Shown here: one piece after another, positions 1 to 60,724 of the stretch
How the letters are laid out: each line of letters starts with the position of its first letter
How positions within the stretch are numbered: position 1 is the stretch's first letter
Source: Craspedostauros australis
Lineage: Eukaryota
DNA length: 62,773 bases
Direction: 5' to 3'
NCBI GenBank assembly: GCA_030167865.1
Contig: JALAGF010002141.1
Location: forward strand, 62,001-124,773
Made by a program: the position numbers and the translations under genes
Notes under the pieces: generated by a model
What the model was told of the DNA's origin: nothing
Databases searched by the model: none
Seen by the model: only the letters and a program-made list of their open reading frames with translations

Positions 1-2
1 AC

Positions 3-2378
3 GGCAAGGAGTACGCGATGCTGAAGAAGTACGTGGAGAACACGAGGAACGCGACCGCCGAAGGCGTCAGCGGTTGGGGTGGCAACGACTGGGGAAGTCG
101 CGGCCTGCGCTTGCTGGACGTTTTCGAGGTGGAACGCGAGGGAGAGGCGCCAAGATTCGAATCGTCCAAGGCGCTTGGCAACAGACGGTTGCTCTGGCAC
201 GGAAGCCGCATCAGTAACTACAGCGGTATCCTCAGCCAAGGATTGCGCATCGCGCCACCGGAGGCACCTGTGAGTGGTTACAGGTTCGGCAAGGGTATCT
301 ACTTCGCCGATATGCTCGGCAAGAGCGCGAACTATTGCCGCACCAACGGATCGTCCGAGATGCTCGTGATGGCGTGCGACGTCAGTTTGGGCAAGGCATT
401 CGAGACTCCCCATGATATGTACATGGACAAACCGCAGAAGGGCACCAACTCCACTCACGCATTGTCCGAAATCATCCCAGACCCAGACACCTATGAAGAG
501 ATCCAAGATGACCCCAAGGAAGACAACACGATGGACGATACCAATATGGTGAAGGTCCCGTTGGGGAAACCCATCAAGTCCTCCCTTGCGTCGCAACCGA
601 GCTGCGATGTGAGCGAATTCATCGTGTACGACATCGGCCAAGTCAACATTCGGTACCTCTTGCGTCTGACAACGAGCGATGAAACTGTCGCAGCAGACGA
701 TGCAGAAGCCGAAGACGAGGTGGAGAACGAAGCCGACGCCAAAGCCAAACCCGCCAGTGACGCCAACGACGACAATGGTGACGACGCAAAGCCTGCTGCG
801 AAGAAATCGCCGCCGAAACCATCAACAAAAGTACCTGCAACCGCAACCGCCACTTCCACCCCCATTGCTGCCAAGGCTGCGCCTGCGCCTTCTCCCAAGC
901 GGAAGCGTGCACCCAAGAAACCAAAAGCAGCTGCTGCGGCTGCAGCGCCCAAGTCGCCCACTAAAAGCGGCGGCGCCAAGAGCAAAGCGAAGCCCGCAAG
1001 CAAGCGCGCCAAAATGGCCCACGTGCCTGCAACCGCTTCTGCTCCTGCATCGGCCAAAAGCTCCATGAGCAAGTCTTCCACCACTAAGGCCTCCACCACC
1101 GCCAAGAGCCCCACCGCCAAAAGCTCCAACGCCAAGACCCCCAAGAAGGCAGTGACACCTCCTTCATTCATCGCACTGGAGAAGGAAGACACTTCCGTGC
1201 CATCGCTCTCAGGCGAGAAAGTGATCGAAAGCCTGACATTTGAAGGTGGTCTGCGCATCACGCTTGTCAAGGGTGACGTCGTGGAGTCCAAGACTGATGC
1301 AATTGCTGTATCATGCGATGACAAGCTGCAGCCATTGGGTGCAATTGGTACACGTGTGAAGGCGGCAGCTGGGCCCGACTTTGTGGCCGAGATTGATGCG
1401 CTGGTGCCTCCACCACCTAGTCCAACCGTGGCACCAGTCGTCGTCAGAACCAGCCCTCCCGACACCAAGCTCCCAGCCAACTTCAAGAGGATCTACAGCG
1501 GCCCAACCGCAGACACAATCCGCAATGTCATCATGGATGCTGACGAAGAGTGGGAGGATATGTTCTACCTCGTCGAGCAGACGGAGAAGTTGTCTTCCAA
1601 CGACGAAATCGTTTGCATCGAAGCCGATGGCACCTTCCGCAAGGGCGAGGAGGCGAGGAAGTTGCTGGGAGTCGGACATAAGCGCAACGAACACATCACC
1701 ATGAAGCAAATCCCAACAGGCGCGGAAGTGTACGTCCAAAGCAGCCCGCATCGGCGCATCAAGCCGCGCACGCCAATCCTTTTGGAACAGCTGATGCCCA
1801 TGTCAGATGATGAAGATGACGCTGCTGCTGCTGCTACCACCGCCACTCCTGCTGATGCTAGCACAGCTCCAGCCGTGGCGCCTGCGGTCGCAACCGCATC
1901 TGCGCCTGCATCTGCAGCACCACCGAAAACAACCGCGGCGTCCAAACCAGCAGCTCCCGCCAAGCCACTTGATTTGAAGATGACAGACGTCCACGCACTG
2001 AAGGGCCATTCCCTTGCCGCCTCCACCGTCATCAGCGTCGTCGAACTGAAATGCCCAGCCAGCCAACAGAAGAAGGGCAAAGAACTGCTGACGATGGCAG
2101 TGATGAACATGCTGAAGAAGTGCGCAGAGCTGAAGTTAACAAGCATCGCACTTCCCGGCTTCGACGTCGTTGGATCGACAATCAAGAAACGCGACACAGC
2201 CATGTGCACCATCAAGGCCATCGCAACATACTTGGCAGAGGCCAACGCCAACGACAACTCCAGCGCAAAAGGCTCCGGCAGCAGCCAGCCCATCAAGGAA
2301 GTGTGCTTCTGCATTGGGCACGCCCGTTCAGTTCAAGCCTACCACCAAGCCATGCAAAGCCAAGACCGTCCGGAGTAA
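3..2378 (+). CDS. Poly(ADP-ribose) polymerase (PARP1/2/3-type catalytic domain) fused to a C-terminal split macrodomain; 5' end lies upstream of the window
   Basis: Frame is open from nt 3 (GKEYAMLKKYV...). PARP signature LLWHGSRISNYSGILSQGLRIAPPEAPVSGYRFGKGIYFADMLGKSANYC and EFIVYD give an intact H-Y-E triad. A K/A/P-rich linker follows, then macrodomain motifs (ITLVKGDV..KTDAIA; later SIALPG, IKEVCFC). Confidence 0.92.
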   Translation, partial: GKEYAMLKKYVENTRNATAEGVSGWGGNDWGSRGLRLLDVFEVEREGEAPRFESSKALGNRRLLWHGSRISNYSGILSQGLRIAPPEAPVSGYRFGKGIYFADMLGKSANYCRTNGSSEMLVMACDVSLGKAFETPHDMYMDKPQKGTNSTHALSEIIPDPDTYEEIQDDPKEDNTMDDTNMVKVPLGKPIKSSLASQPSCDVSEFIVYDIGQVNIRYLLRLTTSDETVAADDAEAEDEVENEADAKAKPASDANDDNGDDAKPAAKKSPPKPSTKVPATATATSTPIAAKAAPAPSPKRKRAPKKPKAAAAAAAPKSPTKSGGAKSKAKPASKRAKMAHVPATASAPASAKSSMSKSSTTKASTTAKSPTAKSSNAKTPKKAVTPPSFIALEKEDTSVPSLSGEKVIESLTFEGGLRITLVKGDVVESKTDAIAVSCDDKLQPLGAIGTRVKAAAGPDFVAEIDALVPPPPSPTVAPVVVRTSPPDTKLPANFKRIYSGPTADTIRNVIMDADEEWEDMFYLVEQTEKLSSNDEIVCIEADGTFRKGEEARKLLGVGHKRNEHITMKQIPTGAEVYVQSSPHRRIKPRTPILLEQLMPMSDDEDDAAAAATTATPADASTAPAVAPAVATASAPASAAPPKTTAASKPAAPAKPLDLKMTDVHALKGHSLAASTVISVVELKCPASQQKKGKELLTMAVMNMLKKCAELKLTSIALPGFDVVGSTIKKRDTAMCTIKAIATYLAEANANDNSSAKGSGSSQPIKEVCFCIGHARSVQAYHQAMQSQDRPE

Positions 2379-3770: not shown

Positions 3771-5352
3771 CTAGTTCTGTGTGAAGTTGTAAATGACGCC
3801 ACCGAATCCAACCGCAAGCACGATGCACATGATGTCGACCATGAGCTTGTCGCTGGCGCGTCCCACCTCCTCCAGGGTCTCCTTCATGCGCTCGTTGACC
3901 TTGGAAACGCGCTCGATGTTGTTGGAGATCTTGCGATCGACGTTATCGAGCATCTGGTTCTGCCTTGTGACCTCCTCGCCTTGCTGCTGCGCGATTTCGG
4001 CCAAGTCCTGAATACCCTCGCCAATCTCATCCAGCTGCAGATCGAACTCGGCATCTCGTTGCTCCAGTTGCATGATCTGCTGTTGCTGAGAGCTTGTCAA
4101 GGCTGAAGCATCGTATGTCGGTATTGTGCGTATGGTGCGTATTGCATACATCGTGTTTGTTGTTGTTGGAGTTATTGAGGATGATATGTGGCATCGCACG
4201 AGTAACAAAAGGAAACACGGGCAGGGACAAATATCAGCGATGGCGGCAGTGATCATTGAAGCAAGAGTATGTGTGAGATGAAGCCTGAGATGTATGTATG
4301 TACCGGTGGCAGTGTGTTCATGATATTGCCGCTGGTATCCTCTCTTCAACAGTGTGTTGCAAGCTTGTCGGAACAACGCTTGCAAAGGAACACTCATCTT
4401 CAAGACAGACGGGTAAAGTATGTGTTTGCGCAATGAACGAACGTACCAACTCCTCCTCCGGCACCTCCCCAGGAAGCTCCCTTGTTGTTACCTGCGCAGA
4501 AAGACGAATGGGCGAAGAGATACGTGGAGGAGTGGAACGTGCAATCAGCAAGTGAGGGATCGGATGAGTGAGTGGGAGAAAATGAAATAAAGTGCCATGC
4601 ACAACTACACAAAGTACGGTAGGTACCACCAGAGCAATGGCAGCAGCAGCGACAGCAACAAACCAAGAAACGCCAATGCTCGAACAACACAGAAGGGCAC
4701 AACACAGTACCATACATCACCGCAATGGAGCACAACACAACATCATGTAATACAACATACTACAGCACAACTCAAAACGCAAGGTATGCAACGTACCTCC
4801 AGCATTGTAGGCCAATGCCTTCGTATTCAAGGCCACCGCAGCATCCGGAGTGCGGCTGCGCGCATATCCCTTCATCTGCACTTCCTTGACCTTCTCAATC
4901 TCGCTGTACAAGCGCTTGACGAGCTCCGCCTGCACTTCGAGTTCCTCAGTGGTGAACTTGCTCTTCTTCTTGCGCGCCTCCTTCTTGTAGATGCCATCCA
5001 GCTCGTTCCATTCGTCCGTCGCCTGCCGGATCTGCTCCCGGACCTCGGCCTGCATCTTGATGATCTCCTTGGCGTTGTCGCCACCGTAACCGGCCCCCTC
5101 GAGCTCCTTCGTGTCCTTGAGCAGCTGGTGGATGGCCTTGAGGCGGTCCAGCACGGCAGTCTTGAGCTGCAGGAAGCGGGATCCCTTCTTCTCCGTCCTG
5201 CGGTTGCCGCTCGTGCCCATCACGGCCACGTTCTCCGCCTTCGCGCGCTTGTCCTCCTCAGTGGACTTGGGCTTGGCTCCCAGATCTTCCTGCATGGCGT
5301 ACAGCTTGGTCAGCAGCACCGTCAGGTCCTCATCTGATTTCGCGTTCGGCAT
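3771..5352 (-). CDS. Qc-SNARE / syntaxin-like protein (SYP7/Stx8-like), 3 exons, about 310 aa
   Basis: Exons 5352-4797, 4491-4447 and 4102-3771 join in frame through GT-AG introns (...YNAG-GNNKGASWGGAGGGV-ALTSSQQQQ...). SNARE heptads RDAEFDLQLDEIGEGIQDLAEIAQQQGEEVTRQNQMLD. C-terminal TM anchor IMCIVLAVGFGGVIYNF. Confidence 0.88.
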
Positions 5353-6543
5353 GGCGTCGGTTTGTTGTCACGAGTAGTTGGTAGTGTGGTGGTGTGGTAT
5401 CGTGCAGAATGGTCTTTGCTTGTGCGGTGTGACCGTCCGTCGGAGCGTGCGTCTCTGGTGTTGCTTCTTCTTTGGCTTTCTGATCTCGTCCTCAAGATCA
5501 AGAGTGCTATTATACGACTATTGTTCTGCTCCAATGCTTCCGTCCTTCTTGTGATCTCTCCAATGGTTCGCAACTTCTCAACAACCCTTTGATGCTTCAA
5601 TGATGCGCCTCCGTTGACTCTTGCTTCGAGCAACTCGTTGAACTCCCTCGTCGTTTCGGTTTGTGTGACCGTTCAGCCACAACGGCATTCGTGCCAACAT
5701 CGCGAAGAAACCATTGCCGTTCCCAATTTCGCCTCCTGTTGCCGTTGTTCGTGTTGCTTTCTTTTTGCCCTGCCCTTGTGCTTGTTGCGTCGTGTTGTTG
5801 TCTTTGTCGTTGTGTCGTGCTTTTTGAAGTGCTCGATGACTCGTTGGACCGCATAGGCAAGGTGGAGCCAGATGTCGCTTCATTCAGTCACTACCGACTC
5901 GTGATTGGATGGATTCACAAAATCGGCAAGTTGTCAAAATCAACGCCAACTCATCAACAAGGACGCTGCTGACAATGGCGATCCTTTCGGCTACCAACTG
6001 GTACGCTCATGACGCTGATGACCAGAAAGAAGGTGGGACGCACCACGAGTCATATGCATATATTCATGAAGTATAATAGTCAACACTATTGGAACTGCGC
6101 ACGAAGGAAAGATGATTCGAGGCGCAAACACAACGATCCGCACGACCCGTACTGCTCTGCGGTTGCGACGATGATCGATGGGTTCTTCATGAGAACATGA
6201 ACCGCAGCTTTCGCAAAGGATCCGCGGAGGCTGCAATCATGTAATAGGACAGTGCATGAAGTGTTAGATCGTCAGGCATTTCGTTCTCTGGCAATGAACG
6301 TTGGCGCCGACGATGGCGTCAAGCTCTGTCATGGTCGCTGCGATCTACACGCGTTCAGCAGTATACATCTGTTATGGGAGAGTGGCATTCGCTGGTTCCA
6401 TTGCGCTGTTGTTGTCGTGTGTCATTCATTCTGTCACGGGGACGACTTCATTCTACGAGCTACTCCCACTATATGTATGTTTCACCAACCATTGAATCCC
6501 ACCCTCCGTATCCCCACCTACTTCCACAAAAGAGTACTCTGCC

Positions 6544-21141: not shown

Positions 21142-21849
21142 ACTATCTCTCTCTGAAGTCATTGTAATTGTTACAGAATCAGAGAATCCATGTTCGCTTG
21201 CATTGAGTCGGGAGGGTGAACCAGAGACCAGCAAGCGATAACATTCCTGCAAACATACGTACGGCCTCATTGAAGATGCTGCCTCTTCCCTGAGGTTCGG
21301 GTCCAAGAAGACGATTGCGGAGCCTCGACTGATCCTCCAAAAAAAATTGGGAGAGAGCACACGCACCCGAACATCCGTTGCGAAACCATGCTTTGTACTT
21401 GTACGAACTACGGTATGAGACGCATGCCAACACCAACACAGTCGCTACACGCCGCCCAAACCAAAGCGAAACAGGAGCGGTCACAGTTCATAAATTTAAA
21501 ATCCAGAAAACGGCAGAACCAACTCGACCAAACCAACACCACTTGCGCATCTGGAGCAACAAGCTAACTCCCACACACTCACGCACACACTTACCAACGA
21601 AGCGCGCCCTCTCTCTCACACACTCGATCTAACACTTGCGGTCGCACTGGCATCCAAGAGCTCAACCACAGAGTACCAGACGGTACAACACATTTCTCAG
21701 GATTCCTCATCGCCGTCACAATCAGCAGCAACAGCAACAACAAACAACAAGCAACGAACAACATTGTGGTTCGTGCTTCATCATCAGAATCGATCCCAGC
21801 ATCGACAACAGTCCAAGACGCAGCAACCAGCGACCACAACAGCGCCGAG

Positions 21850-23082
21850 ATGCCTCCTCTACGCGGATACCACATCGCCATCGAACCACTCCCACTATCA
21901 TCGTTGCCATTCGTGACATCATCGTCGTCGCCGCCGCCATCATCGTCCTGGTCGCAGTCCCTGCTTTCGTCGTCTTCGAAAGAAGGCAAGCAAGGAGAGA
22001 GGTCGCTGCTGCCCATGCTTCCTTGGAGACGAACGATGCCCGGATCCCAGCACAGCCTGGATGCATTTGAAGCCATTGCTGGGAGCAACATGTTCCCCAC
22101 CAGCTCAGTCAATAACCAGCTCGATCCAACTCCCATCTACCCAAGCCGCGTCAACGTGGTTCGGAATGTTGCCCTCGATGATACCAACTGGCACAACGAT
22201 GTGCAACGGGATATCATCGCAGCGCTCGGTCCCTCATCACACATCGCGAGACTCCGGGGTTACGATGCGACTACTCAGAGCCAGGAAGATGACGAGCACC
22301 AGTCGATTGGAAGGCCTGGCCAACTCAACAGCATGAAGGATGACCAGGTTTCTCCGGACAAGGAAGAATTCGGCTTGGATGCACTTCTCCGTCGACGCAA
22401 TCGCCAATACTTTGTAGACTGCGATGTGCAAGTCTCGAAGATGGATGCAACGGCGGCTCCGCAGTACACGGGTTCCTCCAATCTGGCAAGCAGCCCGTCA
22501 GACAACGACAGAGCCGCAGCGATGCAAGTGGCATCTCCCCTCGGGTTCATATCCACGCAAAGTCAATTATCATCGTCAAATCAACCCAGCCAGTGGGAAC
22601 AAAGATATCAGGAGTTGAAGAGGCACCGCTCGAAGCATGGGCACTGCTTCGTTGATACGTCCGACTACCCATCGTTATCGCAATGGGTCAAGCGCCAACG
22701 ATACCAGCTCAAGCTCAAGCTCACCGGCAAACATTCAACCCTGAGTGACGAGCGAGTGAAAGCACTCGACGAGGTCGGCTTTGTTTGGAATTCGCACCGC
22801 GTCATCTGGGAGCAGAGGTACAACGAGCTCGTTGTCTTTCGCCAGCGGAATGGACATTGCAATGTTCCGACCGAGTATGCCAGCAACCCCGCCCTAGGCG
22901 TGTGGGTGAAAGGTCAACGACGCCAGTACAATCTCTTCCGATTCGGCTGGAAGTCCTCAATGACGAAGGAACGTGTGGATCGATTGAATGCGCTGGGCAT
23001 GCAATGGTACCTCCGCCAACCAAAGATGGCAAAGAAGCGACAAGCGAGTGCGACGGGACAGGATGATGCCGACAGCATGTAA
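21850..23082 (+). CDS. Helicase-associated (HA) domain protein with two C-terminal HA repeats and no helicase core
   Basis: WEQRYQELKRHRSKHGHCFV...LSQWVKRQR...LSDERVKALDEVGFVW and WEQRYNELVVFRQRNGHCNVP...LGVWVKGQRRQY...MTKERVDRLNALGMQW. First ATG at 21850. Confidence 0.9.
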   Translation: MPPLRGYHIAIEPLPLSSLPFVTSSSSPPPSSSWSQSLLSSSSKEGKQGERSLLPMLPWRRTMPGSQHSLDAFEAIAGSNMFPTSSVNNQLDPTPIYPSRVNVVRNVALDDTNWHNDVQRDIIAALGPSSHIARLRGYDATTQSQEDDEHQSIGRPGQLNSMKDDQVSPDKEEFGLDALLRRRNRQYFVDCDVQVSKMDATAAPQYTGSSNLASSPSDNDRAAAMQVASPLGFISTQSQLSSSNQPSQWEQRYQELKRHRSKHGHCFVDTSDYPSLSQWVKRQRYQLKLKLTGKHSTLSDERVKALDEVGFVWNSHRVIWEQRYNELVVFRQRNGHCNVPTEYASNPALGVWVKGQRRQYNLFRFGWKSSMTKERVDRLNALGMQWYLRQPKMAKKRQASATGQDDADSM

Positions 23083-41022: not shown

Positions 41023-44000
41023 ATGTCGGATGATTCTGCATCGTCAACCTTGCCATCGCAGGCCAAGCCTGTTGCTGAGCAAAGCCAACAACCAGGAACC
41101 ACTGCGCGTTTGCCTCTGCATCAATCTCTTCCTGTCATGGATGGTCGCAACGACGGAGACCATGATGAGACTCACCTCAGCAACGGCCGCCTAAGCAAGG
41201 ATCAGCATGGCTCGGAGAGAATCATCGTGACAACCGCTGCAACGTCTGATTCTGGTTGCGGTCGGGACGTTGATTGCAGCACAGACCATGACACCAGATC
41301 ACAGTCCACGAGATCATCCAGATCAACGCATTCCGTGTCGTCGCAGATCCTATCGCCGTCCATCGCTGATGATACGCGCCCCACCGCGGCTGTTCATGTC
41401 AAGGTTGCACCCGCCGCCGGTTCTGCCCACAGCGACAGTGCCAATGACGCTCATGTTCCTGTCCATACTGTCACAAGTCGGCAGACCACGCATCATTCAC
41501 ATACACCACATCGTGCACAGAATGTTCCGCACAGATTCGAAGCTCCACGAACACGATCAACAACGAAACAGCAGATACGGACAACAACGTTGCAATCATT
41601 ACCATCATTACCATCGTCATCATCTTCAGCACTGCCAAGTGCACCCACAACGTCATCATCATCACCTCTTTCCAGCATGCAACAATCTCCACTCCACCAT
41701 CCCCAACAATCACATTCACATTCACACCAACATCCATTCCATGCATCATCTTCGCTGCACCCAACACGCTCGCCACATCGCACACCACTGCATCCACTGG
41801 AAGATGACAGAGACCAGGCGCGGTACAGCGGCACCGCCAGCGCATCTGAATCTTCACAAAGCGTCACCACTGCGGCAACAACCACAACGACGACCAGAGA
41901 TCCATTGCATTCACCCAGCCTGGCTTCTTCCGTTGGAGCCGGAGCAGCGTCATCTGAGGTATGTACATCCATCTACGTATGATCTCCGCATGACGCATTC
42001 TATCGATGCGCAACATCCATGCTCACACACTTGCTCGCTCACTCATTCATCTATTCATTCATTCGTCCATTCATTGGCCCATTCATTCTTGCATTATGTG
42101 ACTGGCTCGGCATGTGCTTGGTCCTTCGTCCAACTCGAATCGGATCGAATCGAACAGGAGGAAAGCGTCGCAGAACTCGGAGATGTCAGCGAAGGTGAAT
42201 GCTCATCATCAGTCGATGGTGATCATCACAGACTGGCATTACGCCGCGCACGGGCTTTAGAGATTGCAAATGAGCTCAGCAAGGAGTTCAGTTCCGGCGT
42301 CGTCGCCGTCGCCAAACGTCTCTCAGCTCCCAAGAGCGCATCTCGCAAGCCGCAACCGCACGTTGAAAGCCCAGCATCTGCTGTCACCACAGACAGCGTC
42401 CCGCCTGTGGTGCTCCAATCGTCGCTCAAGCGCAAAGCGCATTCGATGCCTCCAGTCTCGCTCGGCACACCATCCTCATCATCTTCCCAACGGCACACTC
42501 GCATGTCGCCAAAATCACCCCTCCCCCTATCAGCAGTCAAGGTTGCTCGTTTTTCGGAACCTGCCGATGACTCAGAGTCGCTGCACGATCGACCCATGTC
42601 ACTACTCACACGCCGAACACACAGCAAAACAACAAAGAAGGCCAGAAGCGCGATGAAGCACTATCGTACTCGGAGCAAAGACAGCGATGCTCACACGCAT
42701 CAGCTGCAACACAAGAAGCAGCCACCAACCAGTGCTGTATGCAGTGCTCCCAGCGATCGTGCGTCGCTATCATCGTCTCTTTCGTCGTCTGCAACAAAAC
42801 CAGGTGCGACAGCCACTTCAAACACGGCAGCGTTAGAAAACAACCCATCCACACCGACACCATCAACGATACCTGGGTCTGCTGCATCGCATCCCGGGGC
42901 AGAAATATCAGCCGGAGCGAATCCGCTCTTGACAAGAGCGGCATCGTTGATATCTCCCCGCGAATTGCCACTCAACTCTGCGCGCCACGGATCGCACGGA
43001 CCGCAGCCACATGATGAAGATGCGTTGCAAGACAAGAGCAAGGATTCGTCCACGAGACATACCGATTCACCGTCCCCCTATCACCTCAAGGATCCACGAC
43101 GCGCGCAACATCAGCAGCAAAAGCAGCAACAACGACGACTCGAGCTACAGCAACAATCGCATGACAATGACGAACTCGATCATTTGCCGACGTCACTGCC
43201 AAAGTTCCGCGAACCCAGAATATCGATGTGGACGTCGTCGCATGCAGCCAATTCACCGTCAGAAGATCGCAGCTCCTCCCTCGTCAATGTCCTGCTGCAA
43301 CCATTGCCACCCAATTTCGATTCAGAAACGCAGCTACCTCCGTTGGAACCAGAATACACGTCGTTGGTGCGATTGTCTCTCTGGTCGGTCATCGATGGAC
43401 ACGGCGGTGGCTGCGTGGCGACCTACGCATCGGAGGTGTTGCTGCCTCATATTGCGGCATCCATCTCGCGTTCCTTGGGTTGCGCCATCGTCGATCGGGG
43501 TGTATGCGAAGTCAACGGCCAGCTCCGTGATGCGAACGCGCTTGATCTCGATGGCCTCATCAAGACGTCCGGTCGCAACACGACCAACACCAACTCCATT
43601 CACTACCGTTCGCCCTACGAGGCCAGCGACAGCGACGAAGAAGATGCCGACGGCGATGACCTGTCGCAAGTGCGAGATGACGATGCGGCGACAGTCAACG
43701 ATTCCACAGGCACCAAAAGCCAAGCCTCAACGCCCGTTCCCTCGGTCGCTTCGTCTCTGATCGACCAATCCCCCGCTGCTGCCTCAGCATCTTCATCCGT
43801 CGGTGCATCCATGTCGTCTGTCAAAACATCGGTGAAAACAGCAACATCGACAGCCGCAAGGGACGCACCTGTTGGCACGCATTCGCCGAGCGAAGTGGCT
43901 GCGATCACGCGTGCCATCACGGAATCATTTCTCGCGGTGGACGAAGGTTGGATCAACTCGATCGATCCTGTGGCGACGCATCAAACATCCTGTCAAAGCA

Positions 44001-45790
44001 ATGGCAGATGGAACTCGGGCGCCTGCGCCTTGGTCGTCTTCACGGTCCAACGGCTGGAGTGGACGAGCGTCTTCGAAGCCGACCGCGAGCACGGTTTGCG
44101 CGGTCCGGAGAAGTGCATGGGACACGACACATCCCAGAATAAGGACGCTGCCAGACGCCGCATGCTCGATTACGCAACGCGCGCGAAGAGCGCAAGCTCA
44201 ATGAGCACGATATCATCCACCTCCTCGCTGACAACGACGGAAGACCGTGTTCACACGTCTGGTTTGGAATCGGAGATCACGGAAACCGAAGGCGAGGATG
44301 ACGACCACTCAACGGCCGATCACAAGCACCGCCGCCGTGATCCATCGCGGCGCACATCGCGTGGAGCAAACCTCCCGAAGGAGACATTGATCAAGGCGCC
44401 AGGGAGCTGCGCCTGCCACTGCTACCGTGCCTACGACGCGTTGCTGTACACAGCGCATGTCGGCGACTGCCGTGCTGTCATGCTGGGATCGGCGCCTCCA
44501 CGTACCATCAAGGTGCACGGTTCAGCAGATAGCCATACGGATGCCACGGATGACGAATCCAGCCACCACAGCTCCGATGAAACCGAGTGCCTCAGCAGTT
44601 CCGATCACGACGCCAACAGCAGCGATGACGAAGATGTCAATATTGAGCATGGCAAGTCTGCGTCATTGACAAAAAAGACTCCCACGACATCGCCGTACAT
44701 GGCCTACATGCGTCGCCCAACGCGCAGGCAACGCCGTCGTCCCGGAGATGATTTTGGAATGAACGCACCGTTCATCGCGCTGCCGCCTTTGGAGAGCTTC
44801 CAATCCGTCGAGTTTGAGATTGATAGCGACGTGGATCGCCGACGTGGAGGACAGATGGGCAATCCCAATGGCGGTGATCGATCTGATTCCTCGCAATCCT
44901 CATCGCAGGACAGCGCTGACATCATCCAGCTGCCTCCCGTCACCCGTCCCATCGATTTGACGACCGACCATTCCGCCTACAATCCAGCCGAAGTCACAGC
45001 GGTGCTGCGACGATGTAACAATGCCCCGAGGGCCATATCTGCGGGCGTCGGTGGCGGCATCAAACGAGTTGCAGGAAGCCTGGCTGTAACACGAGCGTTG
45101 GGCGACGCATACCTCAAAACTCCATTGCTGTCCTTCAACCCTTACAAGCGCCACGCGCCGTACATCACGGCTCGACCAGAAGTCAACTGCAGACCACTGG
45201 TGAAGAATGGTGACAAGGTGATCATTCTCGCCACGGATGGGGTTTGGGAACGTGCCACAGGCGAGGACGCGTTGCGGTGGGTGCGAAACTTTTACGCCGA
45301 ACGTATCGCGAAGCTGGAACGCCGCAAGAGCCGCCGATTGAACACGAACAGCCAATCCGATCGCAACGCCTCAGACTGCAGCGACGAAGCCAAGCAATTG
45401 CATCACGATGATGACAGCGACGATCGCGCCGAGATGGATCTTGTCAACACAGCGACCAACGGAAGCAATGTGGCGAACAATGGCGTTGGCGGCGGCGCCA
45501 GCAATAGCAACGCAACCGCGGCCAATGCCAGCAACCGCAAGCGAGAGCGCCCTCTCAGTCCCAGCCCACCGACGAAGCGGCTCAAACGCGGACGGTTGCA
45601 GAATTCGTCGCTATCTTCGAGATCAACCGTTGCCGATGTGATCGTCAGGCGTGTACTGAACAAGGTCCGTCGTGTCAAGAACATCTCGAGTCTCCAGGCG
45701 CTCATGTCCCTGCCGCAAGGTCGCGCACGTCGGTCGAAGCACGATGACATCACGGCAAGCGTCGTGGACTTGTCTGCCTTCGTGTCATAA
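41023..45790 (+). CDS. Very large PP2C/PPM-family protein phosphatase, 2 exons, about 1522 aa
   Basis: Exons 41023-41958 and 42158-45790 are in frame (ASSE|EESV). Motifs AANSPSEDR, WSVIDGHGG, NSGACALVV, LYTAHVGDCRAV, LTTDH, RVAGSLAVTRALGD, ILATDGVWE and RRSKHDDIT. Confidence 0.9.
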
Positions 45791-46688: not shown

Positions 46689-49600
46689 CTATGAGGATCC
46701 GGAAAGAGGAGCCGCGATGTCGGTTGGAACGATGGAACCGAACCAGGACAGCTTCTGTTTGCCGTCTTCGATAACTTGGTAGTCACCGTCGTCAAACTGC
46801 AACAACGTGGCAAGGACGGGCAGGAGACTGGACCGTTCGCTCGATCCCGGCGGCTTCGACAAGAATTGAACCACGATGCTCTTCAGATAGTCGAGGTTGA
46901 CGTCCTCTCGCCGCCTCACGCGGCACAGCTCCTCCACCTGACCCTCGGCTTGGAGGCGCTTCGTTTCCTCCGTCGCCAATTCGCCGTCCTGCTCCACAAG
47001 CTTCTGTTGCATGCGCTGGATGGCCTTGTCGCGCGCGTCGATTTCGGTGACTTGCGCAGATTCACGGTTGCTCTGCAGTGCGGCCAGCTCAAAGATCTTG
47101 CGATCGCTCAGCGATCCCTTGTCCACCTCGTTCTTGAGACGCTTGTTTTCAGCGCGGAGCTGCTTGGATTCCTCCTCACGTTCGCGGATGATCTTTTGCG
47201 CGGCCGAGCTCTTGCGTGCCATCGCCTGCTGCAGCTGCTGAACCTCCCGCTGCAGGTTGTCCACCACCGCCGTGCTCTTCTTCGCCGCACCCTTTTGCGC
47301 CTGTGATAGAGCATCGCTGGCCGATTTCTTCGCCTTCTCGCTCGCAGCGCGCTGTTGTTCGGTCGCTTCCAGTTGCTGTTGCAGCGCTTGCAGCTCGTCA
47401 TCCTTCTTGCTCAGATCGTACTTGTTGGCCTCCAGCTTTGCGCTGAGATCCGAATTCTCCTCCTTCACCTCGGTCAGTTCATTCTCCAGCATTCCCATCA
47501 ACGCCGTTCGCTGCCCGTGGTTCTTTTGCTCCTCCTCCTTGTCGGCCTGCAACTTGCCGACCAGCTGCGTGCTCTTCGTCATTTCCAGCTTCATACTCGT
47601 CACCTGTTGACGTAGCTGTACGACTTCGGCCTCGCTCTTCTTTAGCTGAGCCTTTTGCTTATCTGCGATCTTGAGCTCGGCATCCTGCTTCTTCAGCGTT
47701 TCCGCCATGTTGTCCAGATTCGACATGATCGCTGACTGCTTGCCATTCAATTCCTCGACCTTGTTACGGCTGGTATTGTAATCGGCCTTGTACTTCTTCA
47801 ATTCCGCCTTCAGTGTGTCGTTGGACTTTTGCAAACCGTCTTGCGTCTCAAGAAGTGACGCGAGAGTCGATTCGCTCTCGGCGGTGGATGCCTCCAGCTG
47901 CACCATGTCTGACTGGACCCTCTTCTTCAGCCTGGCAACGGTTTCTCGTTCTGCTGCCAACTTCTTGTGCGCATCGTCCTTCTCGTCCCTTTCCTTGCGC
48001 ACCGCTTCCGTGAGCGATTTGAGCTTAGTCATCACCTTGGCGATCTGTCCTTCTCTGGTCTTTTCATTTTCCAACGATGTCTTCATCGCCTGCTTGTGCT
48101 CACTTTCCATCTTCTTCTGCTGCGCTTCGTGCGCCTTCTTGATACCAGCGATCTTCTCATCGTGCTCTTTCAGCGACAAGGAGTCATCCAGAGATGCCTT
48201 GAGCTCGACGATCTGTTCTCGAAGCGAGGCCTCCAGCGTCGACTTCTCTTCCTGCATCGCTTTGACCGACGCTTGGTGCTTCTCCTCCACCTTCTTCATC
48301 TCTTTTTGCACTGCCTCGTCGATCTTCTCGGAAGATGCATTCGCGGTGGCAGATAGCTTGGCGATTTCCTTCTCCTTGTCCTCCAGCGCCGTTTTGAGTT
48401 TGGCCGTCTCGTCGTTTTTGGCCTTGTGCAGTTTGTCCATCTCCTCCGAGTTGGCGTTCAACAACTTCTCAAGTTCTGCGATGCGGGTGCTGAAAACCTC
48501 AGCCGAATCCTTCGTGGATTTCTGGTCGGAATCATTCTTCGCTGTGACCTCCGCTAGCTTCTTCGCGGTTGCTTCGTTCTGATTCTTGAGCTTGAGGATC
48601 ACGGCCTTGGCTTGCGCGAGCTTTTGCTGACGCTCCTTCTGCACTTCTCCAAGACTTGCCTTGCCTGCGTCGATCGCCTTTTGGAGTTCACCCTTCTCCT
48701 TCTCCAAGGACTGGACCTTCTCCTGCGCGGACGTGCCACTCGCTTCGTGCTGCTTGAGCTTGGCAACGAGTGACTTCATTTCTTCTTCCATTTTCACGTT
48801 GGATTCCTTCATCGAAGATAGCTGTGATACGATGTCCGTCTCGCGCTTCTGGAAGGTGGCCTTGCTGGTCTCCAGTTCCTTCTTCAGCGAGTCGTTCTGT
48901 TGCTTCAGACTGGTAACGGCTTGTTCGGTCTCGGACGACTTGGCAGCAGTCTGTTTCTGCAGTTCGTCAACAGCTGCTTTGTGCTTGTCTTCTGCAACCT
49001 TCGATTCGTTCTGCACCTTCTTGTACTCATCCTGCAGCGACTTCATCGCGGCGTTAGCATCGCCAGACGAAGATAGATGCTTGTCCAAGGCCGCCGCCTT
49101 CTCATCAAGCTTGGCGGTGAGTTCGGCGACGGTCTTTTGCATGGTGGATGCGGCACTCGCAGATTTCTCCTTGTCTGCCTGCGCCGTCTTGCCCAATTTC
49201 TCAAGTTCCGCGGCATGCGCCTTCTTCATTTCTTCGACGGCCTGCTGCGCCTTGGCCTGCATGTCTGCAGCCGCGCTGGATTGTTCTGTCTTCAATTTCT
49301 CCATGATGCTCTGCAGCTCCTTGATCGTGGCTTCCGATTTCTTGCCAGCTTCGAGCAGATCTTTCTCGCGGGCCGCCTTGGTCTCCGCCAACTTCACATC
49401 AAACTCCTTCTTTTGCTGCGCAAGGCTACCGTCCAATGATTTTTGAAGCTTCTGGAGCTCGGCCTTGTGCTTCGACTCAATCTCGGACTGGCCCTGTTGC
49501 GATTTGGTGGCCATGTCGGACTTGGCGGTCTTCTCCTCCTCTAATTCGGCCGTGACGGACTTGAGCTTGGTGGACATCTCGGTCTCAGTCTCCTTGGCAG

Positions 49601-52600
49601 ATTTCAAGTTGGCCGCCAACGTGTCGGCCAGTTTCTTCATTTTTTGGAGCTCGGACTGCATCTTCTTCGTGCTGACCTCGGCTTCCTGCTGGATGCGCTT
49701 CACTTCCTCCGCAGCCTTGCCGCTCGCATGCGTCTGCGCCGTCTCCATGCTCTTCTTGGTCGACGACTCAATGTCCTCCTTTTGCTTGCGCAAGCTCTCC
49801 TCCATCTGCTTGCGCACCTTGTCAATCTCTTCGGCCTTTTGTGATTCCAGTTGCTTGCGCACAGTCTCCAGCTCGGATTTGTGCGTGTCGGCGCTCTGTT
49901 GCAGCGCTGTGGCTTTCTCGTCGGTCAACTTCTTGGCGAGCTGTGCTGTCTCTTGTTGCTGCTTCTTCAGCATGGCGTCTGCCGCGGCCTTCATTTCTGC
50001 GTCCTTCTGAGCAAGGATGGTGGTTTTTGCAGATTCGGTGGCGGTAGACGCCGCCTTAGCCACCTCCGTCTCCAGCTGCTTCTTCAAAGCCGCAATGTCC
50101 GCCTCGTGATTCTGCTGGATGGATTGCAGATCAGTTTGAGCCTTCTTTTGCAGCGCGGTGATTTCGTCTTGGGCCGATTTCAACTGTTCGTCAGTGTGTT
50201 TCGTCGCGGCCGTCAAGGACTCCACCTTCTTGTCTGCCTCGTCGAGCTGTGATTTGGCTTGCGACTTGGCAGCCTCGAGCTGCTCGTCATGCTCCGCAGC
50301 CTGTGCCTTGAGGCGGTTGTTGAGCTCGTTGACCTGATCGCCTGCCGATTGCTGCGACAGGTTGCGTTCCTCTTGCCTCGCCTTTTCGACGGCGGCCTTG
50401 AGCTGCTTGGTCGATACCTCCTGGAAGCTCTTGGCCTGCGCACCGAAGGTCTTCTTCAACGAATCCAATGCCTCCGTCTTGGCCGTCTCCGCTTCAGCAA
50501 GCGCCTTCTTGAGGTTCTCCTTCTCCGCCTGAAGATCAGCATCGAATTTGGATTGCATCTGCGACATCGCCTTGTCCTTTACGGATGTGGCCTGTGCCGC
50601 CTTGGTCGTTTCATCAGCCTTCTTGGCCAGGTCGTTCTTCAGCTTTTGCAGTTCCGTTTGGTGAGATTCCGCCATCTGCTGCTGCTGCTGGGCCAGTTTG
50701 GACTCCGAATCCTCGCGCAATGCAGCAACTTCGGCATCCTTCTGCTTCTGGAGTTCCGCAACCTTGGCCACCGCCAGCTGTTCCATCTCCTTGCGAATCT
50801 GTTGCTCACGTTGGGCTGCCTCATCTGTCTGTCCCTTCTGCGTGTCCTGCAGTTGCTTCTGATGCTGCGCCTTCATGGTCTCCATGCTGGATGTCAATTC
50901 CTTCAGTTGGGTCTGCAACGTTTGGTTTTGAGTGGACAGCTGCTTCAGCTTGGATTCGCTGTCGGCCTGCTGCTTCTGCAATTGCGCCTGCGCGGATTGA
51001 TTAGACTTGGCGAGCTGATCCTGCGCGGATTTGGCGAACTCTGCCTGAACGGCCGCACGTGTCTCATCTATCTTGGCCTGGATGACCTTGGTCGTTTGCG
51101 CGGTGGTCTGTTGCATCTGCTGTTGGAATTCGGTCTGGACCTTGGCGATGGCCTGCTGCTGCTGCGCGGTGGCGTCAACCTTGAGCTTCTCCATGGCAGC
51201 GGCGTGCTCCTGCTTCAAGGAATCGACGGTGGCCTTCATCTGTTCCGCATGCTTCTTCTCCAGGTCGGCAACGGCCTTGTTCTGTTCTGCATTCGCGTCC
51301 GTGGTTGGTTGCTGCGCCTTTCGCTCCTCCTCGATCTTTGCTCGCGTCTCCTCCTCGACGGTCTTGCGCGTCTTCTCCAGCTCGTTCACCCGTGCCGCCG
51401 CGACCTTCTTCTTGAATGCCATGATCTGCTTCGCGGCCATCTCCTTGAGCGCCTTCATCTCGGCCGCATGCTTGACCTTGATCGCTTGCATGTCCCCATC
51501 CACCTTGGTCTCGCCGGCACCGTCACGCAACGTGGCAATCTCCGCCTGGAATTGGCCCGTGAGCGTGACGCGCAGTTCGTCCAACGCCGCCTCCTTCTCC
51601 TTGACGAACTGGGACCGCAGGTGTTCGAGTTCCTGCGGTTTGGCAGGTATGGATGCGTCGCCGGGCTGCTTCGACAGCTCCGCCTGGAACGTGACGAGAT
51701 CGGAACGCAGCTGCTCCAACGTGAGGCGATTCTGCTCTTCCCACCGATTCCACGCTGTCTGCAGCTGCTCGATCTCGGGCTGTTCATCGGACTTCGACGT
51801 GGAGGTGTTTTTGAGAATCTCATCCTTCCAGAATGTGAGAACGCGGTCGCGGTCCTTCTCTGCCTTCTCGGCGCGCGTTGCCAGCTGCAGGCGGAGAGCG
51901 TTGAGGGCCTTGAGCTTTTTGTTCATCTTGGGCAGGATCTCGAGCAGCTCCTCTCTCGATGCCGTGGCCAAGGACGTCGGTGCGGCACCCGCAGTGCTGG
52001 AGCTTCCAGATGTTGTTGCTGCCGCGGCGCTCTTGGTTGTGCCATGCGTGGAACGATCCTTGGCTGCCTCCTTGACCTTGGTGTTCATCTCATTCATGGA
52101 GGTGGCTGCCTTCGTCCCCAATTCCCCTGCCTTCTGCCGTATCGCAGCGAATCCAAGCCCGAACCTGCTTCCGATCGCACTGCCACCATTTTTGTTGTTG
52201 TCCGTGTCCTGTTTGAGTTAGAAGCATTGTATAATAGAATATGAAGTATGAAGTTTGACGGTCGACGACGGAGAGTGAAGGGATGGTTAGTTGGTGAATA
52301 TGGAATGTAATGTAATGTAATAGTGAAGTGGGATGGAGTGGCAATTGGGCGAGAAGGTCAAAAGCAGAGAAGATGAACGGATGAGTTTGATGAACGAGCG
52401 CAGCGATCGTCGCATTCGTTGGTTGAGATGTTGCCGAACCATGGTGCGCTTGGAACATGATGCTCCTTCATCTGCAACTGCGACTGCTGATGAATAGAAC
52501 AGAGCTGTCGCCGAATGCCATCATCCTCGTATCTTCCGGCCAATGCAACCGTTGCAAGTGCTCTGTGCAAGTGCTCTGTGCAAGTACGGGACTCACTTTG

Positions 52601-58919: not shown

Positions 58920-60724
58920 ATGAAGTTCTCTCTCGTCGCCCTGTCCGGTGTGAGCACCGCCGCTGCCTTCAGCGCTTCCTCCTTCACCGGATCCAACAGC
59001 CTCAACGTGCCGAAGTCCACCTCCAGCCTCGACATGCGCTACAAGGTCGCCGTCGTCGGAGGAGGACCAGCCGGAGCCTGCGCCGCCGAGATCTTCGCCC
59101 AGGAGAAGGGTATCGACACCTTCCTCTTCGAGCGCAAGCTCGACAACGCCAAGCCATGCGGTGGAGCCATCCCGCTCTGCATGGTCGGTGAATTCGATAT
59201 CCCAGAGTCTGTCGTCGATAGAAAGGTAAGCAGCAGATGAGATGAATGCCAATCTGTGAATTCGTCCGTCGCGGATCCAACTTGGGTGGATCTGCCGACA
59301 ACCAAGGCTTGGCCTTGTGATGTGGCTCCACACGGGATGGATTGAATACACCCATCGCAATGGCACCAACCATGCAGCTTGCGAAGTATCGAGCATGCCT
59401 ACCCCATCAACCGGTCATCCAGTTCATCATCTGTTTCCAAACGGCGACGCCGGCTCAGGATGAAGATGAGAAGCGCACAGCCACTCAAAATGAGAAAATT
59501 GAATGCGGCAACAAACAACTCACACGTCTCATGCATCTCCCATCCCATCAAACCCCACAACGCACACTCCAAACTCCACCAAACATGAATAACCATGATC
59601 ACCCTCACCAAACTCACCAACCAACCAATTAACAGGTCCGCAGAATGAATCTCGTCTCCCCAACCGGCGTCGAGGTCGACATCGGTGAGACCCTCAAGGC
59701 CGACGAGTACATCGGCATGACCAGACGTGAGATCCTCGACTCCTACCTCCGTGACCGCGCCTTCGAGTACGGAGCCGAGTGCGTCAACGGACTCGTCACC
59801 TCCATCGACATCCCAGCCGACCACAAGGTCTCCGAGAGCAAGTACACCATCAACTACCAGAAGTACGAGGCCGGTGCCAACGTCGGAACTCCATCCACCA
59901 TGGAGGTCGACATGATCATCGGTGCCGACGGTGCCAACTCCCGTGTCGCCAAGGCCATGGACGCCGGTGAGTACAACTTCGCCATCGCCTTCCAGGAGCG
60001 CATCAAGATCCCAGACGAGAAGATGACCTTCTACGAGGAGATGGCTGAGATGTACGTCGGTGACGATGTCTCCCCAGACTTCTACGGATGGGTCTTCCCC
60101 AAGTACGACCACGTCGGTGTTGGAACCGGAACCGTCGTCAACCGCCCAGCCATCAAGCAGTACCAGAAGGCCATCCGCGACCGCGCCGGTGACAAGATCG
60201 CTGGAGGAAAGATCATCAAGGTCGAGGCCCACCCAATCCCAGAGCACTACCGCCCACGTCGTGTCCAGGGCCGCATCGCGCTCGTCGGTGATGCCGCCGG
60301 ATACGTCACCAAGTGCTCCGGAGAGGGTATCTACTTCGCCGCCAAGTCCGGACGCATGGCCGCCGAGGAGATCGTCGCCATCATGGACCACGGCAAGAAG
60401 CTCCCCACCCAGACCGACATCGAGGAGACCTACCTCAAGAAGTACGACAAGGCGTACGGCCCAACATACGCCGTCCTCGACATCCTCCAGAAGGTCTTCT
60501 ACAGAAACAACGGTGCCCGCGAGGCATTCGTCGAGCTCTGCGCATCCAAGTACGTGCAGCAGGTCACCTTCGACTCCTACCTTTACAAGCGCGTCCAGGG
60601 TAACAACCCACTCGATGACCTCAAGCTCCTCGGAGAGACCATCGGATGCCTCATCAAGGGATACGCCAAGGCCAAGCCAGACCAGGAGTTCTCCAACCCA
60701 GTTGAGAGCCAGAAGCGCATCTAA
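58920..60724 (+). CDS. chlP: Plastid geranylgeranyl diphosphate reductase, 2 exons, about 464 aa
   Basis: Exons 58920-59225 and 59636-60724 are in frame (VVDRK|VRRMNL). Signal peptide with ASAFAP-like AAA-FSA. Motifs [37 protein letters not shown] and [20 protein letters not shown]. Strong high-expression codon bias. Confidence 0.97.

Follow-up and report, generated by a model that had tools for sequence, protein, structure and literature searches.

A macrodomain interrupted by a domain of an undescribed family in a PARP1-like protein of Craspedostauros australis

Can a macrodomain hold a whole folded domain in one of its loops, and what would such a guest do there? The question is raised by an open frame at positions 3..2378 (plus strand) of a 62,773-nucleotide stretch of Craspedostauros australis DNA (contig JALAGF010002141.1; the whole stretch is called the window below), in which an initial annotation, made from the letters alone, saw a macrodomain divided by an ordered segment. 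We find that the nested domain, here called X, is real and that the family it belongs to is undescribed. Taken jointly, we give a probability of roughly 0.55 to a reading in which a PARP1-type polymerase carries a macroH2A-like reader and a portable X, the nesting of X is tolerated, and the window copy has drifted.

A split macrodomain at the end of a PARP1-like protein

All peptides quoted in the initial annotation are present in the open frame. A profile of 218 positions, built from two uninterrupted diatom macrodomains, matched the window protein in two collinear blocks, confirming the proposed division: profile positions 2-68 form the N-half (E 1.3e-15, ~1206-1406) and positions 75-205 the C-half (E 3.9e-19, ~1971-2366), with 187 residues between them where the intact orthologues have 3 and 5. 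The N-half was correctly recognized but starts ~40 nt earlier than annotated, with the first strand KVIESLTF at ~1218-1241. Pfam detected the C-half alone (PF01661, 31.1 bits against a cut-off of 22). In a phmmer search of the PDB both halves aligned collinearly with macroH2A1 (residues 7-55 on 18-66 and 255-338 on 82-162), and the insertion point is the loop following helix alpha2, where macroH2A1 reads RKKNGPLEV. The flanking linkers are Pro-rich and acidic/Ala-Pro, as annotated (Table 1).

Given to ESMFold2 as separate chains, the halves came together into one macrodomain, as anticipated, with an interface score (ipSAE) of 0.88 against 0.00 for the best of three controls, ~185 contacts, at least 95% contact agreement between runs and a partner predicted local distance difference test score (pLDDT) of at least 87. 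Of solved microbial pairs 51 of 78 attain the mark used, as do 2 of 108 mismatched ones, and the eukaryotic figures are 71 of 105 and 2 of 126, respectively; macrodomains have already been solved, so this pass may reflect memory of known structures. Residues 31-35 are predicted to pair between 275-277 and 314-316, and 19-21 with 367-369, the strand order usual for macrodomains. AlphaFold, run from a single sequence on the whole region, did not assemble the macrodomain sandwich.

When upstream contig sequence was added, the open reading frame (ORF) grew to 1,445 codons. Counted from the first Met, which lies at position 60,092 of the contig and 1,909 nt before the window begins, it encodes a PARP1-like protein of 1,428 amino acids, whose C-terminal part is the macrodomain. 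The Pfam order in the full ORF is zf-PARP, PADR1_N (below the cut-off), WGR, PARP_reg, PARP and Macro, the first four being encoded upstream of the window; there is a single zf-PARP, and no BRCT match at E up to 1. The catalytic triad H (198), Y (300), E (615) is intact and identical in 6 of 6 aligned proteins, and together with the WGR, regulatory and catalytic domains it places the protein among Clade 1 PARPs. The linker that follows the catalytic domain is more basic and longer than its counterparts in four orthologous or paralogous proteins, and in make-up it appears to resemble the H1-like linker of macroH2A; SPKK-like motifs in it were seen in this paralogue only. The genome holds at least 12 PARP catalytic domains above the Pfam cut-off; several diatoms are reported to have few or no PARPs in the available text of PMC4245714.

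The best PDB match of the intact orthologue macrodomain is macroH2A1.1 (7ny6, E 1e-27; 1yd9, E 7e-22). The window macrodomain retains both the adenine Asp (KGDVV) and a Gly (LGAIG) that we take to be the equivalent of G224. The Gly-rich diphosphate loop is important for ADP-ribose binding; here the window copy reads PGFDVVGSTI and does not match PSIGSG..G[FY], with PS(I/V)GSGxAG kept in its paralogue, Seminavis, P0013 and Stephanopyxis. The role of G224 in macroH2A1.1 is taken from the available text of PMC8232725. The NAAN motif, characteristic of MacroD-type hydrolases in the accessible part of PMC9191684, is absent from the window protein (AVSCDD) and its relatives (VVPTD, VLPSD, VNPCD, VSPSD).

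Table 1. Features of the window, in window coordinates
Feature	Position	Strand	Basis or remark
PARP1-like gene, 3' part	1..2378	+	single-ORF gene, 1,428 aa; rest upstream of window
PARP catalytic domain	6..668	+	Pfam PF00644, E 8e-54
Ala/Lys/Ser/Pro linker, disordered, ~180 aa	684..1205	+	nuclear localization signal (NLS)-like SPKRKRAP; 4 [ST]PxK/R motifs
Macrodomain N-half (beta1-beta3, alpha1, alpha2)	1206..1406	+	orthologue profile, phmmer, ESMFold2
Pro-rich linker 1, 21 aa	1407..1463	+	composition: 38% Pro
Inserted domain X, 110 aa	1464..1793	+	homologous to C-terminal domain of vWA-X proteins
Linker 2, acidic then Ala/Pro/Thr, 58 aa	1794..1967	+	composition: 40% Ala, 17% Pro
Macrodomain C-half (beta4-beta7, alpha3-alpha5)	1968..2366	+	Pfam Macro, E 5.7e-07
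Degenerate diphosphate-binding loop	2154..2183	+	PGFDVVGSTI vs PS(I/V)GSGxAG(Y/L) in relatives
Syntaxin-like gene, intron-split	3771-5367	-	weak Pfam match
Helicase-associated (HA) repeat protein	21568-23082	+	
PP2C	41231-45790	+	
GRIP-domain golgin	46689-52217	-	

The inserted domain and its family

X is ordered, as the initial annotation had proposed for a segment of this length: modelled from a 43-sequence alignment, it reached a mean pLDDT of 93.6 and a predicted template modelling score of 0.85. It matches the C-terminal part of phrog_26613, scores 84 bits against a family profile that includes the window sequence itself, and independently matches the vWA protein P0007 by phmmer (E 7e-6); the family motif FYx..E..K..G...R..LG..VFVQSxSxxRK is present. 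The annotated likeness to a domain C-terminal to vWA was borne out as well, a vWA Pfam match being found in 30 of 44 scanned homologues and X being C-terminal in 124 of 126 bacterial or viral ORFs. The family has no Pfam entry and no close structure, has members in at least several hundred genes of bacteria and phages, and is found on RING-vWA proteins as well as on PARP. No description of X, or of a PARP1-macro-X architecture with two X positions, was found in the literature searched (mainly open-access, and including the available text of PMC4245714, PMC7824862, PMC8195603 and PMC1949818).

Could X instead be intronic, the product of faulty assembly, or a passenger without function? Several near-invariant residues are lost in the window copy. 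Against this stand the single open frame of 1,445 codons, identical nesting on a second contig and in two independent records, and the 61% identity between the X of the paralogue on that contig and the X of Seminavis. Moreover, none of the 7 GT sites in linker 1 fits the pattern of a strong splice donor, and GC content at third codon positions is 75% in X and 76% in the catalytic domain, which makes an intron unlikely. As a whole, we consider this explanation very improbable.

Other carriers of X were also observed. Giant-virus metagenome-assembled genomes (GVMAG) encode RING-vWA-X proteins (L103:4404-6143 and L133:4380-6125), which suggests that X rides on a viral ubiquitin ligase. Diatom proteins P0003 (Odontella), P0174 (Seminavis), P0009, P0006 and P0010 have X at both ends, enclosing a vWA or phrog_1735-like domain; in most of them a basic, NLS-like motif follows the first X. 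On metagenome contigs L174 and L175 there are genes in tandem pairs that begin in an F-box-like manner (judged by eye) and also have X, an acidic region and weak leucine-rich repeat matches; L176, L178 and L185-L191 hold eukaryotic, apparently intron-split X-linker-vWA-X genes whose linkers contain KKRGRGK-type repeats. A 127-residue ORF without Pfam match lies directly upstream of vWA-X at L106:4597-4977, and its cluster is present in 14 of 79 viral loci.

Two positions of X and divergence of the window copy

Four proteins have X nested in the same macrodomain loop: the window protein, a paralogue of the same architecture on contig C3431 (L004 3207-7253, minus strand), Seminavis robusta P0012 and the fragment P0002. 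The orthologues P0013 and P0172 (the latter from a transcriptome record of Stephanopyxis turris) have X at the very N-terminus, 1,100 residues from a macrodomain that is uninterrupted (loop of 3 or 5 residues). Seminavis is a pennate and Stephanopyxis a centric diatom. Of 513 PARP homologues found, 120 were listed; among these, 3 carry X and 4 have a Macro Pfam match. The occurrence of X at two positions in diatom PARP points to a new, portable binding module. The PARP1 of Cantina marsupialis (P0057) lacks X; it has BRCT domains and ends in a macroH2A-like macrodomain with no interruption, and fusion of PARP1 to a macrodomain may predate the diatoms.

In the X tree the four nested copies form one clade (support 98/95; 94/94 in a smaller tree), placed within a group of diatom N-terminal-type X copies (99/96). 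Judging from this topology, nesting arose once; relocation of the PARP N-terminal X and derivation from another diatom X gene are not separated (approximately unbiased test, P-value 0.447). In the catalytic-core tree the window protein and its paralogue are sisters (100/100), adjoining Seminavis (99/99), a placement that makes their host most probably a pennate diatom.

These data bear on the idea, raised in the initial annotation, of a sensor coupled to the macro fold, in which ligand binding by X would gate ADP-ribose reading. All four nested proteins use the same loop, kept since before the Seminavis split, and an insertion domain has a precedent in the Legionella macrodomain Lpg0081 (available text of PMC9191684). 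However, a single origin accounts for the shared site, X is N-terminal in two orthologues with intact macrodomains, the halves fold in the prediction with X left out, and the linkers are low-complexity and variable, total loop length ranging from 139 to 187 residues. The idea is thus weakened; we regard it as unlikely, and as the least likely of the functional models.

With Seminavis as outgroup, changes unique to the window versus the paralogue numbered 31:8 in X (P-value 3e-4) and 30:9 in the macrodomain C-half (P-value 1e-3), and were balanced in five core domains (P-values 0.45-1.0). Branch lengths of window and paralogue were 0.13 and 0.17 for the core, 1.02 and 0.22 for the macrodomain, and 1.79 and 0.29 for X. 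Against the family consensus, the window X carries K47D, P80M, S95P and K99I, and its net charge is -2, compared with +4 to +6 for the other four PARP copies on which it was measured. Erosion thus appears to affect both X and the ADP-ribose pocket of the window copy, a PARP that has probably escaped feedback by ADP-ribose. The C3431 paralogue, with an intact diphosphate loop and an X near consensus, is the better experimental target.

Proposed function and comparison with known systems

Because the core is PARP1-like, we infer that the enzyme would be a polymerase activated by DNA breaks and equipped with two add-on readers. The first would be the C-terminal, macroH2A-like, non-hydrolase macrodomain, whose ancestral form would bind the ADP-ribose made by the enzyme and, acting in cis, cap or limit its own poly(ADP-ribose) (PAR) signal. 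The model for this is macroH2A1.1, which binds ADP-ribosylated PARP1 and can inhibit PARP1 (available text of PMC8232725 and PMC9454564). The second would be X, a portable module from the vWA-X family helping to place the enzyme on its target; a substrate-recruiting role, as initially annotated, is a plausible candidate. X lies at the N-terminus in some diatoms and, through one event in the Seminavis/window lineage, would have come to sit in the loop following alpha2. Long flexible linkers would let X and the macrodomain fold independently, so nesting would be a tolerated position and not a switch; as X can work from either end of the chain, we see in it chiefly a tethered module for targeting. 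After gene duplication, the window copy would have kept its catalytic core while macrodomain pocket and X drifted.

What might X bind? Its residues Y35, E41, K47, R65, Q92, S93, S95 and R98 are kept in 93-100% of 41 relatives, and the median net charge among relatives is +3. These conserved basic and hydroxyl residues, the PARP and RING-vWA carriers and an analogy with the WWE domain suggest a phosphate-rich ligand (PAR/ADP-ribose or nucleic acid), most likely bound through the eight residues just named. The main rival is that X is a protein-binding adaptor, with a ubiquitin-like (beta-grasp) core that completes the metal site of vWA (MIDAS, the metal ion-dependent adhesion site) via the conserved Glu or picks substrates for its carrier enzyme, PARP or RING ligase. 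The MIDAS motif is kept in 21 of 21 vWA partners of X, and we hold the adaptor to be possible, though not the favoured choice; gene neighbourhoods do not discriminate it from the phosphate-rich-ligand model.

Several observations weigh against the reading we prefer, that of a PARP1-type enzyme with a portable, phosphate-binding X. The conserved polar residues fit a protein interface or an active site equally well. Bacterial and phage vWA-X genes have no conserved neighbours, and ADP-ribose-type neighbours occurred once each (one NADAR among 118 phage neighbours; one ADP-ribosylglycohydrolase and one WGR among 80 proteins), giving no genomic support for ADP-ribose as the ligand. The two positions rest on two N-terminal and four nested examples in all. 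In the macrodomain N-half the excess of window changes is not significant (14:6, P-value 0.12), and the window X keeps its reading frame open and 11 of 17 conserved positions intact; its drift may therefore be new function and not decay.

A bolder proposal, which we regard as doubtful, is that X is a reader of ADP-ribose/PAR or broken nucleic acid with a fold of its own, found across bacteria, protists, large phages and giant viruses, which diatoms attached to PARP1 and which there moved from the N-terminus into the macrodomain, with paralogues split into feedback-limited and feedback-free forms. PAR readers come from few folds, and a new one, if true, would matter for ADP-ribosylation biology and phage-host conflict. 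Being carried by a PARP1 and by RING-vWA proteins gives a first functional handle on the X family. Orthologues that lack X, bear it at the N-terminus, nest it or let it erode form a ready natural experiment in how domains become inserted, and they point to a macrodomain loop able to accommodate an entire domain, which is useful for the design of ADP-ribose biosensors. Joining a macroH2A-like reader to PARP1 in cis would make a self-limiting design, one not mentioned in the portions of the literature searched.

Already known are PARP1, the macro-PARPs, macroH2A and, in Lpg0081, a macrodomain that contains an insertion. Human PARP1 (Clade 1) has the same zf-PARP, PADR1, WGR, regulatory and catalytic order and H-Y-E triad, whereas the window protein has one zf-PARP, no BRCT match, and in addition a C-terminal macrodomain and X. 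MacroH2A1.1 shares the first strand, GD(I/V), the Gly equivalent to G224 and the absence of NAAN; here, however, the macrodomain is fused to PARP and not to a histone fold, is split by a loop of 139-187 residues, and in the window copy has its PSIGSG loop replaced. PARP9, PARP14 and PARP15 likewise combine macrodomain and PARP domain in one chain (available text of PMC4245714), but their macrodomains precede a Clade 3 catalytic domain, whereas here the macrodomain follows a Clade 1-type core. Legionella Lpg0081 also has a folded insertion inside its macrodomain; in the accessible part of PMC9191684 the host is a permuted hydrolase and the insert, of ~70 residues, lies between its beta2 and alpha1, in contrast to a mobile 110-residue domain placed after alpha2 on long linkers. 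The WWE domain, classed as a beta-grasp derivative (PMC1949818) and reported to bind PAR, is a functional analogy, being a small module on PARPs and ubiquitin ligases alike; the WWE motif is not in the X alignment, and no sequence or structure match of X to WWE was found. The closest relatives are the vWA-X proteins (phrog_26613, no assigned function), such as gp18 of mycobacteriophage Myrna and EVB91_149 of Rhizobium phage RHph_I1_18, whose C-terminal domain is homologous to X; in the protein described here X is detached from vWA and joined to PARP.
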